Below, one piece after another: positions 6,102-43,655 of a stretch of DNA of 64,000 nucleotides. The position numbers and the translations under genes were made by a program. The notes under the pieces are model-generated. The model was given only the letters and a program-made list of their open reading frames with translations, did no database searches and was not told the origin of the DNA. Position 1 is the stretch's first letter. The number at the start of each line of letters is the position of its first letter. The stretch is from positions 2,848,001 to 2,912,000 of the forward strand of contig OZ257142.1 of the NCBI GenBank assembly GCA_965279035.1, written 5' to 3'. The DNA comes from Bacteroidia bacterium (lineage in GTDB: Bacteria > Bacteroidota > Bacteroidia > M30B66).

Positions 6102-8537
6102 TTAATGAATCACTTGAAAAACCTTTCCTTCGATGTGTCTTCCGTCCAAGTTCTGAATATTCAGAATATACGTTCCATTATTTAATTTCGAAACATCCAA
6201 AGAAAATTCAGCATTGGAGTTCAAATTTGCTTGTAGGCAAAGTCTTCCATCTACTGAATAAATCGAATAAATCAATTTTTCATTTTGTTTATTGTCGATG
6301 GAAATTTTCAGTAATTGATTGGATGGATTTGGGTAGATTTTAATAGAAGCTGAATTCCCTTTTTCGGGGTTAATGTTAGCGAGAATATTTCCATTAGCAA
6401 ATGCATAATCACCTTTTCGTAATTGAGAGATTTTCATGGAACCAATGCCATTGGTAATGGATCCTGCATTTAATGTAAAGTCGGTATACACTTTCCATTG
6501 TGCTGAAGCATTTTCTCGATAGATAAGAACAGCTTGGGCTTCGGTATTATCAAAAAGATCATTATCTAATGATTCACTTGTATTTCCAACATAATTTAAT
6601 TGTGCATGCATTTCGGTTGTAGCCGGCCAAATTCCATCAACATGCCAGTAATGATTAGCAGAAAATTGATAAATATCTTCTGAACGTAAACTCGAATCGG
6701 GAGCTGCCCAAATATGATCAATGCGAACTAATGTTGAATCTGTAAGCGTATCTAAATACAAACGCATTTCAGAATAAGGTAATATTCCATTTAAAATGCT
6801 TTCATCGGGAACAAACGTATTTTCATAATCTGTGCGAGCCTGATTCAATCGTGTATGACGATTTAAAATCACCATTTTAGGTTCAAATGATGAAGTAATA
6901 TTTACATTAGAATATTGACCGTTGGCAGTAATTCTAACATCTTGACTTTGTCGATTTGCGCCAATCAGAGTTAAATCCAATGGAACATCACCATAAAAAC
7001 TTGGACATTTTCTCAATTTCTGTTGAATGTGAATCGTGGAATTCCAATTCGCCCCAGATTGTGTTGAGGCAAATGAATCAACAACAAATACAGAAAATCC
7101 CGGTTTGTAAACTTGATCTTCAAAAAAATCGTGTAAATCAAAACCGCTAGCTGCTTCTAAATAATCACGTAACTGAAATGGAGTGATGGTTTCATAAGGA
7201 TGAGCAGCTTGAACTGCCGACATAGCTTGACGAAATAAATCATCACCCAAATACCCACGTAAATTATGCATCACAGAAGCTCCTTTGTAATATGTGTGAT
7301 CGCCGTATATATTATCGTCAGGCATTGGTGAAAGGGCAAAATATCCATTATCTGTGATGTGAGCTGTTTTTAAAACATATTCATGATTATCCTTCACCTC
7401 GTTTATAAATGCATCATGTCCATCAACTTCTTCTACGGTTAGATGTGCGCTATATTCTGCTGGTCCTTCTTTCAACCACATATCATTGTGATTGTATGGA
7501 GCGATCCAATTCCCCCACCAATAATGACCTAATTCATGTGCGAAAAGATTCCGATTTTCTAATTCGGCTTGTCCCATCATAAATTGAGGATAAGCCACAT
7601 TTCCCGTTATTTCTAAGGCACCATCGGTTGTTAGTGCATAACCTACTCCAGGCCATCCCGTTGGACCGTACCAATTTTCACAGGCATTGATGGCATTTCC
7701 TAGATTTAAAAATTTAGTACGCATTGCACTTGTATCGGCCGGTTTTGCTGTGAGTTTAACGGGAACTGGAGCATAATTCCCCTGATGTACGTATGTTAAA
7801 TCACGATAATCTGATGCAGCAAATGCAGAAAGATGCGTAGGCAAAGGTTGATTAAAGGAATAGCTGCGAATAACAGTATCACCACCAACATTGGTTTCTC
7901 CTTCGAATGTGCCTTGACAATGTGCTTTAAATGCGCCAGAACTCTTTACATGATACCGATACGTGGCACGTTCAACAAAAGAATCAAAACAAGGATACCA
8001 TACTTTTCCAAAATTGGGAGGAATGGTCGATAAGCCTATCCCTAAATTGTAGATATAACCGGATTCAAAATAAAATCCACCCCAAACTGGATCACGATAG
8101 GGATGACCATGATAATATAACGTTAACGTTGTTGTATCATTTAGTGAAAGTGTATTTGCTAAATGAATAGTTACAAATTGACTATCAGTTTCAAATGGTA
8201 ATAGATTGTTTTGATTCTTTACGGAATCAACGGTTAAACGGACTAAATCGAAACGAATGCTTTGTTGAGCATTCATTTTAGGTACAAATTGAATTTGAGT
8301 TTCTGCTTTGATTGTTTGTCCTGCATAATCTGTAATATCGATGGATATATCATAATGCAAAATATCGAAGGTATCACTACGCAGAATGCTTTCGTTTAGT
8401 GAACGACTATCAACCTGATTGGGGATTAGCGTTTGTCCTCCTAGTTTTCGCCAATGTTGACATCCATAAGGATGAGGCTGAGAAAATGAGAATGAAAATG
8501 TACAAACGAAACCAATTATAAATAGGAATTGTCGCAT
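6102..8537 (-). CDS. M1-family aminopeptidase with T9SS CTD
   Basis: HELGH...WLKEG zinc motif, YYKGA, GAMEN-variant GALEITGN, CTD IYPNPS. Confidence 0.88.
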   Translation of the reverse strand: MRQFLFIIGFVCTFSFSFSQPHPYGCQHWRKLGGQTLIPNQVDSRSLNESILRSDTFDILHYDISIDITDYAGQTIKAETQIQFVPKMNAQQSIRFDLVRLTVDSVKNQNNLLPFETDSQFVTIHLANTLSLNDTTTLTLYYHGHPYRDPVWGGFYFESGYIYNLGIGLSTIPPNFGKVWYPCFDSFVERATYRYHVKSSGAFKAHCQGTFEGETNVGGDTVIRSYSFNQPLPTHLSAFAASDYRDLTYVHQGNYAPVPVKLTAKPADTSAMRTKFLNLGNAINACENWYGPTGWPGVGYALTTDGALEITGNVAYPQFMMGQAELENRNLFAHELGHYWWGNWIAPYNHNDMWLKEGPAEYSAHLTVEEVDGHDAFINEVKDNHEYVLKTAHITDNGYFALSPMPDDNIYGDHTYYKGASVMHNLRGYLGDDLFRQAMSAVQAAHPYETITPFQLRDYLEAASGFDLHDFFEDQVYKPGFSVFVVDSFASTQSGANWNSTIHIQQKLRKCPSFYGDVPLDLTLIGANRQSQDVRITANGQYSNVNITSSFEPKMVILNRHTRLNQARTDYENTFVPDESILNGILPYSEMRLYLDTLTDSTLVRIDHIWAAPDSSLRSEDIYQFSANHYWHVDGIWPATTEMHAQLNYVGNTSESLDNDLFDNTEAQAVLIYRENASAQWKVYTDFTLNAGSITNGIGSMKISQLRKGDYAFANGNILANINPEKGNSASIKIYPNPSNQLLKISIDNKQNEKLIYSIYSVDGRLCLQANLNSNAEFSLDVSKLNNGTYILNIQNLDGRHIEGKVFQVIH

Positions 8538-8632
8538 AGTAAAAACGTGAACGACGAATTTACCTGAAATTTGAAATAAATCAATGTGAAATAATTGTCT
8601 TTCACATTCGATATAACAATAAATGATTATAA

Positions 8633-9021
8633 ACCCGTTGTGCGGTTAAAAATTAGAATTATTCGTCAAAACTATTTATCGCTTACCCAAATAATCAATA
8701 CTTATGTAATGCCTTTAGATTAAATTATTTAAATTAAAATTAGGTTTAGAAACGGATCAGTGTGGAGGCTATGTCTGGGCGGCGAGGGTGTGTTTCGACA
8801 TAGATGAGAAAAAAGCTTATCCGAGCAAAATGGTCGAAAAAAGGCCTTGAGCGTAAGCAGCATCGTCCAGACTTGACCTTCTTTGATTACTTTCTTGTGT
8901 CAAGACAAGAAAGTAATACGTCGTAGACAAACATGAATGATATAGTGACAAGAAGCATTAACAGTCTTATTTCATTGATTGATATAAAAAAAATAAATTG
9001 ATAATTCAACCGCACATCGGT
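8633..9021. mobile_element. MITE-like non-autonomous element, copy 1 (389 bp)
   Basis: Imperfect terminal inverted repeats ACCCGTTGTGCGGTT / AACCGCACATCGGT, flanked by direct repeat TGATTATAA (8624-8632 and 9022-9030). No ORF. Homologous to 38494-39135. Confidence 0.7.
8772..8940. ncRNA. Putative structured RNA/ssDNA core of the MITE-like element, copy 1
   Basis: Stems GTCTGGGCGG/TCGTCCAGAC and TTTCGAC/GTCGAAA, plus a 13-bp hairpin at 8886-8917. Compensatory changes relative to copy 2. Confidence 0.6.
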
Positions 9022-9043
9022 TGATTATAATGTTCTCAAATAA

Positions 9044-38415: not shown

Positions 38416-38493
38416 AAAAGCTAATAATCCTATTATTGACATCAACAGTAGTTGTTGAGTAGAATTTTCATGCTTAATAATGAACCTTAATCT

Positions 38494-39135
38494 ACCTGGC
38501 TGTGGTTCAAAAATTAATATTAATACCTTAAAAATAATATTTATCCTTCAACAATGATTATAGTTTACTCTTGGTTGAAAACATTGTTTTGCCTAAATAT
38601 TTATTTTTAATTAGTAAAATTAAGTTTAGAATCGGATCATAGCGATAGCTATTTCTGGGCAGTGACTTCCCCCTCCCTCCTCCCGTCACATAGTGATCCC
38701 TACGGGTAAGGGACCACTATGTGGCAGGAGAGGTGAGATTATTACAGAACTAGAGTTGGCTTTGTCTAGGTGGGGAGGTAACGTTTCGAATTCTAGAAAA
38801 TTCAAATTCTAATACAGTTGAATGATTTACAGTAAACTGAATCTAGCTTAAATTGTAGGAAGTAAACATGAATCTGGTGCGCTGGCCTGTCTGGGCGGCG
38901 AGGCAGCGTTTCGCCATTCCTGAGAAAAATATAACTCCCAGCACAATGGGCGAAAAATGGCATTGCGCGCTGAAGCATCGTCCAGACTTGAACTTCTTTG
39001 ATTACTTTCTTGTTTCAAGACAAGAAAGTAATACGTCGTAGACAAACATGAATGAATAATTGATATTATGCTAATAAAGCATTAATTAAATGAATGAACT
39101 GAAAAAACACTTTGATTACTAAACCACAAAAAAGT
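38494..39135. mobile_element. MITE-like element, copy 2 (about 640 bp, internally expanded, eroded ends)
   Basis: End cores TGTGGTT (38501) / AACCACA (39122-39128). Leader AAAATTAAGTTTAGAATCGGATCA and the ~170-nt core are homologous to copy 1. No clear target-site duplication. Confidence 0.6.
38888..39055. ncRNA. Putative structured core, copy 2
   Basis: Same stems as 8772-8940 with compensatory substitutions; 13-bp hairpin at 39001-39032. Confidence 0.6.
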
Positions 39136-39160
39136 TTTTATATAATAATAATTCTGCCAA

Positions 39161-40135: not shown

Positions 40136-40394
40136 CTAATACATGTTTGTTCATTTCCATTACGAATCAATGAAAATGAATCATACCAAATCGAAAAGAT
40201 GGAAGAACTAATCCACAATCGATTGTGATTTGATTAATATCCAATGGATCACTTAGAATTCAATTCATTCAAATCAACTACAAACCCAAGTAAGTTCTAA
40301 TTAAAATTACCCGCAACTCTTCGTGTACAAAACAGTTAATAATATACGTCAACAACATAAAAATATACTGACGATTTCGTACCTTCAAATTCTT

Positions 40395-43300
40395 ATGATG
40401 AAACAGTTCAACCTTCTCTGTTTTGCTTTCCTTTTAGGAGCTGCTCCGCTCGCTCAAGCGCAGCACTACGTAATTCCTCAAGGTCTTAAGTCGGATCAAT
40501 ATGTTTCCGGGCAAGTCCTTTTTAAACTTCGAGAACAATACCGTTCTTTAGCGAATGAACATGGAATTAACTCCGAGAAAATTGCTCATGTAATTAATCA
40601 ACTTGGAGGAAGTTCGCTTCATAAAAACTTTCCTGCCTCAAAACAACCGGGTAAGAAATTCAACGAAAATGGAGAACGTTTAGCAGATCTTTCTCTCATC
40701 TATGAGTTAAGATATACAAGCAATACTTCGATTTATCAAGCTGCTGCATTACTTCAAAAAACGGGATTAGTCGAATATGTTCAACCACGTTTTACAGCAC
40801 AACCCATGGCTGTTCCTAACGATCCGCTCGTTGCTCAACAATATCATCATGCCTTAATCAAAACATTCGAAGCCTGGGATATAGAACAAGGTGATTCTAC
40901 AATTCTTATTGGTATTACCGATGGAGGAATTCAGTTTGATCATGAAGATTTGGGGAATTGGCAATACAATTATGCTGAAATAGTAAATGGAATTGATGAT
41001 GACGGTAATGGTTACATTGATGACATAGCCGGTTGGAATACAGCCAACAATACAAACGATCCTACAGCTACACTTTCTCCTCACGGAATGTTTACAAGTG
41101 GAATGAGCAATGCTACTGCGAACAATGGTTTAGGACTTGCCGGAAATGCCAACCAATGCCGTTTTGTTCCTATCCGAATTGACGATGCCACTGGTTTTAA
41201 TTATGGTTATGAAGGAATTGTTTATGCCGCTGCCCGAGGTTGTCAAATAATTAATGCCAGTTGGGGTGGTACATTTCCAAATCCCGTAAATGCAGAAGCC
41301 ATTCTTTATGCAACGGTCAATCAAGGTGTATTAATTGTGGCTGCTTGCGGAAATTCAGGAATAGATGAAAAATACTATCCTGCATCATATGAAAATGTGA
41401 TGAGCGTTGGCGCAACAGGATCTACCGACCTAAAATGGAGCGGATCTACGTTTAATACTTCGGTTGATATTGTTGCTCCCGGTGAACTTGTTCAATCTTG
41501 CTGGCCTTTTAATGGTTACGATATTAGCAGCGGAACTTCATTTTCATCGCCTTTAGTTGCCGGTGCTGCGGCCATTGTGAAAAGTCATTTTCCTAGCTAT
41601 ACTGCTCAACAAGTTGCCGAACGTTTGCGCGTAACTGCCGACAATTCAATCTATTCACTTCCGGGAAATTCTGCTTGGAATGGATTAATGGGGTCGGGTC
41701 GATTGAATATGCTTCGTGCATTGACCGATCCAGCTACACCATCAGTTCATTTCACCAATCCAAACTATTTAGATGCTGGTGGTGATGCAATCTTACAAGC
41801 CAATGAAGATGTTACAATTACTGGTATTTATAAAAACTTCCTTTCTCCAACTACAAATCTCAATGCTACTATTTCGTGTAGTTCTCCCTATGTGACAATA
41901 ATCAATGGAAGTAATCATCCAGGTGCTATTGGAACATTAGCAACTGTGGCAAATAGTAGCAATCCTTTTAGTTTTCATATTGCAGCTAATGCACCGAATA
42001 ATCTCGATTTAATCTTTCGTATCGACTACACGGATGCAGGCTATACAGCATTTGAATACATCGAAGTTCGTGTCAATCTTGATTATTTGAATTTAGATGT
42101 GAATCATCTTCATACTACGATAACAAGTAGAGGAAGTATTGGCTACAACGCCGATTATGCAAGCGAAGGTTTAGGAGTAACACTCGATAGCAGTGCAAGT
42201 ATTATATATGCTTCTGGATTTATGTTGGGAAGCAGTGCATCCAAAGTGGCCGATAATGTTTATGCTTCTTCCATTCCAGGATATGACAATGATTTCTTTC
42301 GTCAAAATGGAGCCCGATACATTCAAAATACTACCAGTCAACAACAAATCCGTTCGACTTTTTATACCGATAGCGCCAGTGTAGGAAGATTGGTAGTAAA
42401 TCAAATGGCTGCAGCCCTTTCAGCATCGCCCGACGATCATGCAGTAATGATGATGTACACCATTAAAAACACAGGAAATTCAGCTGCGAATGGTTTAAGT
42501 GCTGGAATATTTACTGATTGGGATATTCAAAATGCTGGCAATAACCAAGGTGCTTGGGATGCAAGTAGGAATTTGAGTTATGCATTCGAACCCGGAGGAA
42601 TGTATGCAGGAGTTAAACTGTTAGAAGGTCCAGCATCACATGCCTATTGTTTTAATAGTGATGGTTCATCAGGTAGTATTAATTTATATGATGGATTTTC
42701 AGGGACAGAAAAATTTGCGACACTATCTGGTTCTCAAACTCGAAATTCTTCCCCAGCGGGTGATATTGCCAATCTGATTGGAACCAGCTCATTTAATTTA
42801 GCTGCAGGAGATTCTATTACGATTAAGTATGTCATGCTGATTGCTGAAGATTTGTCTCAATTGCAAGCAGCTGCCGATCGAGCACAGAGCCTTTACAATT
42901 ACCTTCAATTGCAAGTATCCGTTGAAGCTGTAGGAGAAAGTTGTTCCCAAAATGATGGCTATTTGAATCTAACTGCAGAAGCAATACCGGGAACTAGTGT
43001 TGAATTAAGCACTTCGGATGGTGTTTCAATAACAACATCAAGCGATTTAAGTAATTTTGAATATAGCGGGTTACCAGCAGGAGATTATCTACTCACCTAC
43101 TCTTTTGCAGATGGTTCAACGTATGATGAATCATTTACTATTGAAGCTTCAACTCCTGTAACTCTTACAACAAGTGCTTCTGCGGAAATTTTAGCATTAC
43201 CAAATTCCATTGTCGATTTCACCGCTTCAGCTAGTGGTGGTGCTCAATTCCTTTGGGATTTTAATGATGACTCCCCTACTTCAACAGAACAAAATCCTAC

Positions 43301-43655
43301 TCATGATTTCTTTGTTGCTGGAACATATCTCGTTACCTGTGTTGCTTTTAATGGATCATGTTCTGATACATCAACTATAGAAATTCTAATCGGCGATCCT
43401 CTTCGTATTGAAAATATTCATGGATTAACTTCCATTTTCCCTAATCCGGTGCATGATGTTTTAACTATTCAATTGCCTGAATTAAATGGAATAGTGAACA
43501 TTCAAATTTATTCAGTAAACGGACAAATCATTTCGCAACAAATAGCGAATCAAGGTTCTAATAAACTGGATGTTTCACAATTAAGCAATGGAATTTATCT
43601 ATTGAAAATATGCTCTGAAAAAGGCATAGAAACACATCGAATTGTTGTGAATTAA
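40395..43655 (+). CDS. S8 serine peptidase with PKD domain and T9SS CTD
   Basis: ITDGG, DDDGNGYIDD, HGMFTSG and GTSFSSP motifs; PKD WDFND...NPTH; FPNPV CTD. The signal peptide fits ATG 40395. Confidence 0.9.
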   Translation: MMKQFNLLCFAFLLGAAPLAQAQHYVIPQGLKSDQYVSGQVLFKLREQYRSLANEHGINSEKIAHVINQLGGSSLHKNFPASKQPGKKFNENGERLADLSLIYELRYTSNTSIYQAAALLQKTGLVEYVQPRFTAQPMAVPNDPLVAQQYHHALIKTFEAWDIEQGDSTILIGITDGGIQFDHEDLGNWQYNYAEIVNGIDDDGNGYIDDIAGWNTANNTNDPTATLSPHGMFTSGMSNATANNGLGLAGNANQCRFVPIRIDDATGFNYGYEGIVYAAARGCQIINASWGGTFPNPVNAEAILYATVNQGVLIVAACGNSGIDEKYYPASYENVMSVGATGSTDLKWSGSTFNTSVDIVAPGELVQSCWPFNGYDISSGTSFSSPLVAGAAAIVKSHFPSYTAQQVAERLRVTADNSIYSLPGNSAWNGLMGSGRLNMLRALTDPATPSVHFTNPNYLDAGGDAILQANEDVTITGIYKNFLSPTTNLNATISCSSPYVTIINGSNHPGAIGTLATVANSSNPFSFHIAANAPNNLDLIFRIDYTDAGYTAFEYIEVRVNLDYLNLDVNHLHTTITSRGSIGYNADYASEGLGVTLDSSASIIYASGFMLGSSASKVADNVYASSIPGYDNDFFRQNGARYIQNTTSQQQIRSTFYTDSASVGRLVVNQMAAALSASPDDHAVMMMYTIKNTGNSAANGLSAGIFTDWDIQNAGNNQGAWDASRNLSYAFEPGGMYAGVKLLEGPASHAYCFNSDGSSGSINLYDGFSGTEKFATLSGSQTRNSSPAGDIANLIGTSSFNLAAGDSITIKYVMLIAEDLSQLQAAADRAQSLYNYLQLQVSVEAVGESCSQNDGYLNLTAEAIPGTSVELSTSDGVSITTSSDLSNFEYSGLPAGDYLLTYSFADGSTYDESFTIEASTPVTLTTSASAEILALPNSIVDFTASASGGAQFLWDFNDDSPTSTEQNPTHDFFVAGTYLVTCVAFNGSCSDTSTIEILIGDPLRIENIHGLTSIFPNPVHDVLTIQLPELNGIVNIQIYSVNGQIISQQIANQGSNKLDVSQLSNGIYLLKICSEKGIETHRIVVN

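Follow-up and report, generated by a model that had tools for sequence, protein, structure and literature searches.

A stretch of 64,000 nucleotides from contig OZ257142.1 of a Bacteroidia bacterium, referred to below as the 64-kb window, holds two copies of one structured non-coding core, and the locus raises the question of what kind of element brings the same fold to two places and what that fold does there. Copy 1 (W1) is the middle of a 389-bp unit at 8633-9021, and copy 2 (W2) is part of a composite at ~38493-39146; these and all further coordinates are positions in the window. The whole explanation that fits best, and which we judge probable though far from certain, is that both cores belong to a non-autonomous element with ends of the IS982 insertion sequence (IS) family, which carries a + strand RNA with a triple-helix pseudoknot acting as a 3' cap. 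What emerges is a new RNA family whose structural principle is familiar, as is the kind of mobile element that carries it here.

The shared core and its helices

Both copies were found where a preliminary description of the window had placed them, on the + strand. Pairwise alignment agrees with its claim that the 3' parts, from about 8859 to 8940 in W1 and from 38974 to 39055 in W2, differ only at 8877 (C/A) and 8899 (G/T). These two positions are facing partners when CTTGAC (8872-8877) pairs with the hairpin loop GTCAAG (8899-8904), and the equivalent pairing in W2 joins CTTGAA with TTCAAG. The 15-mer GTCTGGGCGGCGAGG at the start of the core has three matches at <=3 mismatches, where 0.17 are expected and 0 of 100 shuffles reach three.

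Four helices can be drawn in W1, all on the + strand, and the three stems named earlier are among them as described. The outer stem P1 is formed by GTCTGGGCGG (8773-8782) and TCGTCCAGAC (8863-8872). P2 pairs TTTCGAC (8793-8799) with GTCGAAA (8833-8839) and shows the compensatory change to TTTCGCC/GGCGAAA in W2. The 13-bp stem S2 consists of a pyrimidine strand S2a (ATTACTTTCTTGT, 8886-8898) and a purine strand S2b (ACAAGAAAGTAAT, 8905-8917), and the entire 6-nt loop of this hairpin, S1b (GTCAAG), pairs with S1a (CTTGAC), whose first base is the last C of the P1 3' strand. The corresponding helices in the second part of W2 are P1 at 38889-38898 with 38978-38987, S1a at 38987-38992, S2a at 39001-39013, S1b at 39014-39019 and S2b at 39020-39032, with the linker L1, discussed below, at 38993-39000.

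RNAalifold analysis of 10 RNAs of the W1 type from five lineages gives 9 pairs for P1, two of which change on either side (UA/CG/UG and GC/AU), and 7 pairs for P2, three of them with both-sided changes and with variants that include TTTCGCC/GGCGAAA and TTCCACC/GGTGGAA. A covariance model was built for the 61-nt 3' part, called the module from here on, using 8 sequences and the S2 hairpin as sole structure; 80 further loci were fetched, the matches were aligned to this model, and pairings were counted over the 85 distinct rows outside the model-building set. Across these rows 97.2% of the cells pair, compared with 78.7% after shuffling. All 13 pairs of S2 have double-sided changes, with 98.5% of cells paired, and S1 reaches 94.3% though it is absent from the model. 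Taken together, 15 of the 19 pairs in S1 and S2 show double-sided changes, a number reached by 0 of 500 shuffles.

The complementarity of CTTGAN with N'TCAAG in further copies had been put forward as a test of the fold, and among the 91 unique modules whose S1 is six by six, 85 keep it. The N:N' pair is A:U in 43, U:A in 30, C:G in 11 and U.G in 1 of these, while shuffles give a mean of 41.2 and a maximum of 60 in 10,000. Other S1 sequences stay complementary as well (CTTGGT/GCCAAG, TGCC/GGCA, TGTC/GACA, TGCAT/GTGCA). The proposal that the fold is under selection therefore stands, since adding relatives brings out covariation in P1, P2, S2 and the loop helix alike. Selection as the source of the near-identity between the two copies stands only in part, because W1 and W2 are both insertions of one transposable element and owe some of their likeness to common descent by transposition.

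The strand order is a-b-a'-b', that of an H-type pseudoknot, with each helix covarying. The choice had been left between a pseudoknot and two alternating folds. The pseudoknot is supported, and both helices are real in sequence terms because the top pairs of S2 covary right up to the 6-nt loop; they may form simultaneously or alternate. A 6-nt loop that is fully paired without linkers has a precedent in loop-loop kissing complexes. The closing helix P1 continues into S1a without a gap in every family looked at, so that P1, S1 and S2 could stack.

We also note that three copies (L076, L057 in G010 and L078 in G011) have a ~55-nt insert that breaks S2b after ...AAGAA, with S2b resuming at AAGTAAG/AAGTAGG, and that L075 has a short direct duplication of the 3' end instead of the insert. 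This very spot seems to be targeted by insertion or duplication.

The linker and the purine strand of S2

S1a is joined to S2a by the linker L1 (CTTCTTTG, 8878-8885 on the + strand), which we propose as a third strand of S2, with U8879-U8884 placed over A8907-A8912 and C8881 over G8909. L1 is U-rich with an occasional C and an invariant final G, and S2b is A-rich with an occasional G. The two strands were numbered onward from where S1a stops (L1) and where S1b stops (S2b), and every register between them was tried. When base i of L1 is set parallel to base i+1 of S2b (register +1), an internal C faces G in 31 of 33 cases and U faces A in 488 of 500, and 31 of the 39 in-range G face C. The remaining parallel registers from -2 to +4 place at most 3 of 33 C opposite G. 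At +5, where repeated G in the tract aligns as well, the count is 19 of 32, and at +6, for which the same holds, it is 12 of 31; the best antiparallel register gives 16 of 33, a value that stems from symmetric tracts. When the L1 interior is permuted, 2000 trials average 5.7 and never exceed 13.

The informative cases are the asymmetric tracts, which the search model does not favour. Written as linker over purine strand, they include UUCUUUU/AAGAAAA, UCUUUUU/AGAAAAA, UCUUU/AGAAA and UUUC/AAAG, together with UUUUCUUU/AAAAGAAA; UUCUCUUUC/AAGAGAAAG (one genome of the phylum sample described below). In each of them the linker mirrors the Watson-Crick pyrimidine strand, as a parallel pyrimidine-motif triple helix with U.A-U and C+.G-C layers requires; this is the opposite of what selection for an antiparallel helix would produce. 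L1 probably forms a major-groove triple helix with S2, a proposal that is well supported by covariation.

Among the alternatives, the one that fares best is a conformational switch, in which S2b pairs with either L1 or S2a, or S1 and the top of S2 exclude each other, and the module is a toggling regulator or attenuator and not a static triplex. Linkers of the plain C-U(n)-G type can pair perfectly, in antiparallel orientation, with C-A(n)-G in S2b, the 16 of 33 internal C placed with G in the best antiparallel register are also in its favour, simultaneous full pairing looks strained with zero-length linkers around S1, and in about 10 of 43 modules a same-strand reading frame starts <=120 nt downstream. 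Nevertheless, every type of asymmetric tract has the mirrored linker C, so that a competing helix would contain a C.A mismatch beside a G.U each time. The products of the downstream frames are unrelated, the genes at W1 and W2 are convergent, and 0 terminator-like sites were found on either strand between 8550 and 9100, an intrinsic terminator being a G+C-rich hairpin with a U tract after it. S2 of W1 is A/U-rich and followed by ACGTCG, with no U tract after it. The missing terminator-like sites and the mirrored internal C of L1, which runs counter to what an alternative helix requires, also speak against the terminator switch suggested in the preliminary description. We regard a switch as unlikely, though not negligible.

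The mobile element and its putative passenger RNA

A degenerate pattern of the 5' core returned 11 stretches from a one-genome-per-species collection, nine of which lie in three Flavobacteriales metagenome-assembled genomes; the remaining two were rejected as chance matches in G+C-rich DNA. DNA search of the three genomes gave 16 (G001), 11 (G002) and 2 matches, many at contig ends. Alignment of 12 copies with their flanks reveals a conserved unit of ~390 bp with inverted repeats at both ends. In W1 the left terminal inverted repeat (ACCCGTTGTGCGGTT, 8633-8647, + strand) has 0 mismatches to the consensus from two related genomes, and the right one (ACCGATGTGCGGTT on the - strand, 9008-9021) has two. 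A perfect 9-bp target-site duplication, TGATTATAA, abuts the left end at 8624-8632 and the right end at 9022-9030; target duplications of IS982 elements range from 3 to 9 bp. Compared by eye in the aligned copies, the mutations in the inverted repeats look random and are not compensatory, which fits a protein-binding DNA end rather than an RNA stem. The right part of the element (8918-9007, + strand) is non-coding and conserved among copies, and includes a mini-hairpin, GTC-GTA-GAC, at 8920-8928.

A decayed IS982-family insertion sequence of 1017 bp is present in G001 (L041 760-1776, G001:C66). Its inverted repeats match those of the short element with 0-1 mismatch, and its broken frames match the NCBIfam IS982 transposase NF033520 (E 3e-26 and 3e-11) and Pfam DDE domains. 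Within 8633-9021 there is no reading frame of at least 50 aa. The shared repeats and the lack of a transposase frame identify the 389-bp unit as a non-autonomous element with IS982-type ends, and these features, with the target duplication, small size and many copies, place it in the class of IS982-derived MITEs (miniature transposable elements with inverted repeats) or mobile insertion cassettes. No likeness between the element and the insertion sequence was seen by eye beyond ~25 bp at each end, which makes the interior a passenger and not leftover IS sequence; antisense control of the IS982 transposase was rejected on the same ground. The identity of the element and the helices P1, P2, S1 and S2 can be regarded as solid.

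A duplicated attachment site of an island lying between the two copies was considered and rejected, as inverted repeats bound each copy separately and ordinary genes fill the space from one to the other. The window showed no intact IS982 copy, and the 389-bp unit has no match in plasmid and phage collections. Judged from the target duplications, W1 looks like a recent insertion and the other copies appear older. The core of ~170 nt delimited in the preliminary description is right in location and pairing and too short in extent, the W1 unit measuring 389 bp and the W2 composite ~650 bp.

Local alignment to W1 resolves W2 (~38493-39146, + strand) into an older, rearranged composite of two parts. 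Part A (38493-38802) contains a degenerate left repeat (ACCTGGCTGTGGTT), the promoter-like box described below at 38617-38639 and a truncated 5' RNA part, and is interrupted by a G+C-rich hairpin at ~38665-38740. Part B (38803-39146), where the second RNA copy lies, corresponds to the element from position 8688 of W1 onward and closes with a degenerate right end. Over 351 columns it shares 74% identity with W1, and the 3' module is identical except for two bases, which suggests that the module either is under constraint or has been converted. The G+C-rich hairpin, in which CCCTC... runs pair with GAGGG..., has counterparts that replace P2 in L023 and L030 and, in L009/L045, lie just outside the copy on its downstream side; it appears to represent a nested, second family of small repeats.

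An isolate sequencing run (X1; 91% of sampled words) places 184 contig pieces on the 1.1-kb stretch around W1. Each unique flank is a single contig with a depth of ~630-650, and the summed depth over the element is ~12,000-60,000, a figure that does not equal copy number. This points to many copies in the source genome. Among the contigs of this run, C>A at 8877 occurs in 10 and G>T at 8899 in 8, so both S1 variants are common. The sequence also appears at small shares in wastewater, sludge and freshwater metagenomes, which says nothing on habitat.

The putative structured RNA, comprising a leader, P1, P2, the pseudoknot and the mini-hairpin, is placed at 8754-8940 on the + strand, with approximate ends. 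The + strand of this interval has a folding energy of -59.9 kcal/mol (z -3.85), which 0 of 200 shuffles equal, compared with -39.3 kcal/mol (z -1.34) for the - strand, and G.U pairs outnumber A.C pairs by 32 to 11 in S1 and S2 across modules. Upstream lies a promoter-like region (8714-8748, + strand) with TTTA at 8714-8717 and, after 23 nt, TAGGTTTA at 8741-8748. A 23-nt box, AAATTARGTTTAGAAWCGGATCA, occurs exactly twice in the window (0.00 expected), at 8737-8759 and 38617-38639, upstream of both copies; the G001 and G002 copies of the element conserve it too. The promoter-like box resembles what we take to be the -33/-7 consensus of Bacteroidota. We infer that the passenger is transcribed as RNA.

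The short reading frame from 8931 was rejected as coding, since stop codons cut it short early in 5 of the 12 aligned copies (W2, G1_L004, G1_L010, G2_L023 and G2_L029). For the leader and the region from P2 to the P1 3' strand, the candidate pairings CGAGG/CCTTG and CAGC/GCTG were set aside as inconsistent across copies. In the minimum-energy fold of W1 the leader at 8760-8771 (GGAGG...) pairs with 8873-8882 (...CCTTC), which is part of S1a and L1; this pairing would compete with the pseudoknot and is not kept in other copies.

The genes next to the RNA differ between the W1 and W2 sites, and all of them are on the - strand, convergent to the RNA; the flanks encode a peptidase, an outer-membrane barrel, DUF1801 and YitT. 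A role as leader of the minus-strand neighbours was rejected on the strand evidence, that is, the folding asymmetry and the excess of G.U over A.C. We also note that an M1-family peptidase (6102-8537, - strand) and an S8 subtilase (40323-43655, + strand) both end in a C-terminal type IX secretion sorting domain, which agrees with an origin in the Bacteroidota.

The module across Bacteroidota and among known RNAs

The module, at ~60 nt, was found in 60 of 150 related genomes at E <=0.01, with up to 32 matches per genome, and in 29 of 151 genomes drawn evenly across the phylum at E <=0.001, roughly 450 matches in all. By DNA search, the full element occurs in only two genomes among 80 relatives, and the module alone, over 40-45 nt, in four more. 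Elsewhere the module follows quite different 5' domains, themselves repeated, and the unit boundaries are without IS982 repeats. In the G045 family, the final base of S2b is exactly where conservation stops. The units also form tandem arrays, with three units ~380 bp apart in L099 and three ~310 bp apart in L086, and a cluster of module-bearing units is present in one contig (G282:C19:161893-167998). Many of the 5' domains (e.g. L077, L082, L166/L168, L089, L093) contain a recurrent internal-loop motif, GTTAAG / TAG, between covarying helices in either orientation; it may be a tertiary-contact motif.

The conservation of one module across very different 5' domains in many genomes, the conserved unpaired motifs in these domains and the association with a mobile element could be read as signs of a protein-bound scaffold RNA, in which the invariant unpaired bases and the pseudoknot-triplex core would be a handle for a protein with its gene elsewhere and the variable 5' domains would give specificity. 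Guide-RNA scaffolds of transposon nucleases indeed contain pseudoknots and base triples. Such omega/reRNA guides lie in a fixed nuclease-gene neighbourhood; here, an all-against-all comparison of 174 frame products from 34 loci gave no recurrent protein-coding neighbour, just same-locus duplicates and one small cluster. A variable guide-like segment at a fixed place was not seen, nor were there Rfam matches to omega/reRNA-type families. We consider a scaffold quite unlikely.

The pseudoknot with groove triplex could also be a cis-acting, riboswitch-like leader that sequesters the A-rich region before a start codon and controls downstream translation. Copies in L048, L094, L086, L083 and L079 lie 1-35 nt before start codons, and the architecture resembles that of the SAM-II/SAM-V and preQ1-II aptamers as presented in the accessible text of two sources (PMC6061858, PMC13541005). 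Riboswitches are leaders of functionally related genes, whereas the genes downstream of the module have no common function, W1 and W2 face convergent genes, and about 33 of 43 copies lack a same-strand gene close by. With up to 32 matches in a genome, some of them in tandem, and no riboswitch family in the window at E <=10, a leader role is very unlikely. A DNA-level structure, in which the mirror-repeat tracts and the hairpin act as an H-DNA or cruciform site for transposition or replication of the element, would suit the location inside a transposable element and the mirror repeat formed by L1 and S2a (mirror repeats being the motif that permits intramolecular DNA triplexes), but it is highly improbable: the module is found in repeat families without IS982 inverted repeats, the parental-type insertion sequence is without it (among the G001 matches listed, none is in the IS contig), G.U exceeds A.C, folding is strand-asymmetric, and S1, the purine strand and L1 lie on one strand, which a double-stranded mechanism would not need. 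The ssDNA recognition structure suggested in the preliminary description is likewise not favoured, given the modules without inverted repeats and the G.U excess.

The reading as a transposon-borne RNA can be assembled as follows. The two cores would be copies of a small non-autonomous transposable element with IS982-family ends, no transposase gene and a passenger, and the passenger would be the gene of a compact + strand RNA of ~170-240 nt. In this RNA, P1 would close a small domain containing P2 and join directly to the 6-bp S1, which would be formed with the entire loop of the 13-bp hairpin S2 in an H-type pseudoknot. L1 would leave the S1/S2 junction, follow the purine strand in parallel through the major groove of S2 and form U.A-U and C+.G-C triples, and the outer 4-7 bp of S2 beyond the tract would give the chain about the length it needs to span the deep groove and reach the beginning of S2a. 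P1, S1 and S2 would then stack into one rod. From the sequences we infer that the module acts as RNA, that the triple helix forms physically and that P1, S1 and S2 make up the rod. Capping the 3' side of the RNA, this rod would block 3' exonucleases and/or define the 3' end, so that the multicopy RNAs stay stable. In this lineage one RNA member would have been captured between IS982 ends and have spread with them. The rigid cap protecting the 3' end is our best guess, and a reasoned one: a role at the 3' end is suggested by conservation that stops at the end of S2b in the G045 family and by W1 not being followed by a U-tract terminator.

A number of observations weigh against this reading. Two of the 33 internal C do not face G (L106 and L181:1413), 8 of the 39 in-range G face no C, and the triple leaves unexplained both the first base of L1, often C opposite C, and the last G, which is simply invariant. 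Where the linker is a plain C-U(n)-G, pairing with C-A(n)-G in an ordinary antiparallel helix is just as good a fit. N:N' is unpaired in 6 of the 91 modules, and kinship among the sequences and selection by the search model inflate some of the counts. A clean target duplication is absent in all six other bounded units examined, five short copies and the 1017-bp element. The candidate -7 box is off in its last base and its spacing is 23 nt, which makes the promoter reading weak, and the G107 family has no conserved promoter upstream of its unit. RNA-labelled runs (X22-X24) yield only ~150-nt contigs over parts of the element, in which strand, ends and level are invisible, so that they speak neither for nor against transcription; one of these contigs covers 8642-8792 and extends upstream of the proposed start, and DNA carry-over is possible. 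Against the 3' cap, conservation in W1 runs ~100 nt beyond the module.

More tentatively, the module may be an undescribed phylum-wide RNA module, a helix-capped pseudoknot with a long, sequence-programmable triple helix of the pyrimidine motif at the 3' end of many unrelated multicopy RNAs, able to hitch-hike in DNA transposons. If so, bacteria would have their own equivalent of the triple-helical stability elements so far described from viruses, eukaryotic long non-coding RNAs and eukaryotic transposons. To our knowledge, riboswitch cores apart, few bacterial RNAs contain extended U.A-U / C+.G-C triple helices. The shifting C/G layer would offer a natural covariation series for triplex rules and their pH dependence, and the element would be a case of a DNA transposon end-pair with a captured RNA gene as passenger. 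An RNA that is abundant yet not in Rfam implies that a sizeable class of Bacteroidota non-coding RNA is unannotated, and the module probably causes assembly breaks at repeats. If the 3'-cap idea is true, the module would be a compact stabilising element for RNAs expressed in Bacteroidota.

The preliminary description could assign the core to no named family, and comparison with Rfam 15 gives the same picture. At gathering score there are 0 matches in the window for any family, tRNAs included, and 0 in 16 further loci; in 10 more loci only chance-level hits appear at E <=0.5, and relaxed thresholds in the window likewise bring up nothing above chance level. No prior description of the module was found in the literature searched, which left most subscription journals outside its coverage.

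Like the module, Flavo-1 (RF01705) is a multicopy element of the same phylum with unassigned function and a hairpin whose 5' strand is rich in U and whose 3' strand is rich in A. The Flavo-1 model scores 20.6 and 23.7 bits on two L181 modules (cut-off 42), on the opposite strand and over the hairpin alone, and has no match in the window at E <=10. True Flavo-1 loci in G082 and G181 lie elsewhere than the module matches listed and look different, while G107 and G213 have 18 and 12 module matches and 0 Flavo-1. As compared through the Rfam model, identity with Flavo-1 was rejected on account of the sub-threshold scores, the wrong strand and the separate loci. Flavo-1-type repeats (TAGCCCCGATTGTAGTG...CGAAAAGCGGG) form a separate multicopy element in the same genomes (L090, L189, L190), which sometimes directly adjoins the module, as in L090, where it lies downstream.

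FopS/GibS of Bacteroides are, like the module RNAs, a multicopy small RNA family in Bacteroidota. According to the accessible part of the source (PMC11697453), they have their own promoters, consist of a single-stranded 5' seed followed by a terminator hairpin, occur only in Bacteroidaceae and are deposited in Rfam. Their different architecture and narrower range, together with the lack of any Rfam family at threshold here, led to rejection of identity. For the carrier, IS982-derived MITEs such as MITECca01 of Cardinium are, as far as the accessible text describes them (PMC9769881), short, transposase-less and multicopy elements of Bacteroidota, ~240 bp compared with 389 bp here, and MITECca01, like W1, has inverted repeats in common with an IS982-family element. 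The difference is in the interior, which here holds a conserved, covarying RNA domain and a promoter-like box, with RNA relatives elsewhere that are without IS982 ends.

For the passenger, the accessible text of two sources (PMC13541005, PMC6061858) gives the pseudoknots of telomerase RNA, SAM-II/SAM-V and preQ1-II the same a-b-a'-b' order and, like the module, a U-rich first loop parallel to the purine strand of stem 2, with U.A-U triples and C+.G-C at G-C. Unlike them, the module uses the whole 6-nt hairpin loop in S1 with no linkers, has a long triplex tract of 6-9 layers in which the C/G layers shift freely between members, follows the closing helix of a multicopy RNA rather than being part of an mRNA leader or telomerase, and matches no Rfam model. 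ENE/MALAT1-type stability elements, in what is accessible of PMC13541005 and PMC6379651, use a 3' triple helix against decay, the role proposed here, and have a transposable-element link in plants and fungi. These elements clamp a downstream A-rich tail in a U-rich internal loop, whereas the third strand here is an upstream pyrimidine linker in a bacterial host. The accessible part of a 2026 review of triple helices lists riboswitches and group II introns as bacterial cases and places the transposon cases in eukaryotes only. The telomerase-type and SAM-II/preQ1-II-type pseudoknots would be the closest structural analogues of the module, and the closest functional analogy that we can offer is a triple-helical 3' stability element.

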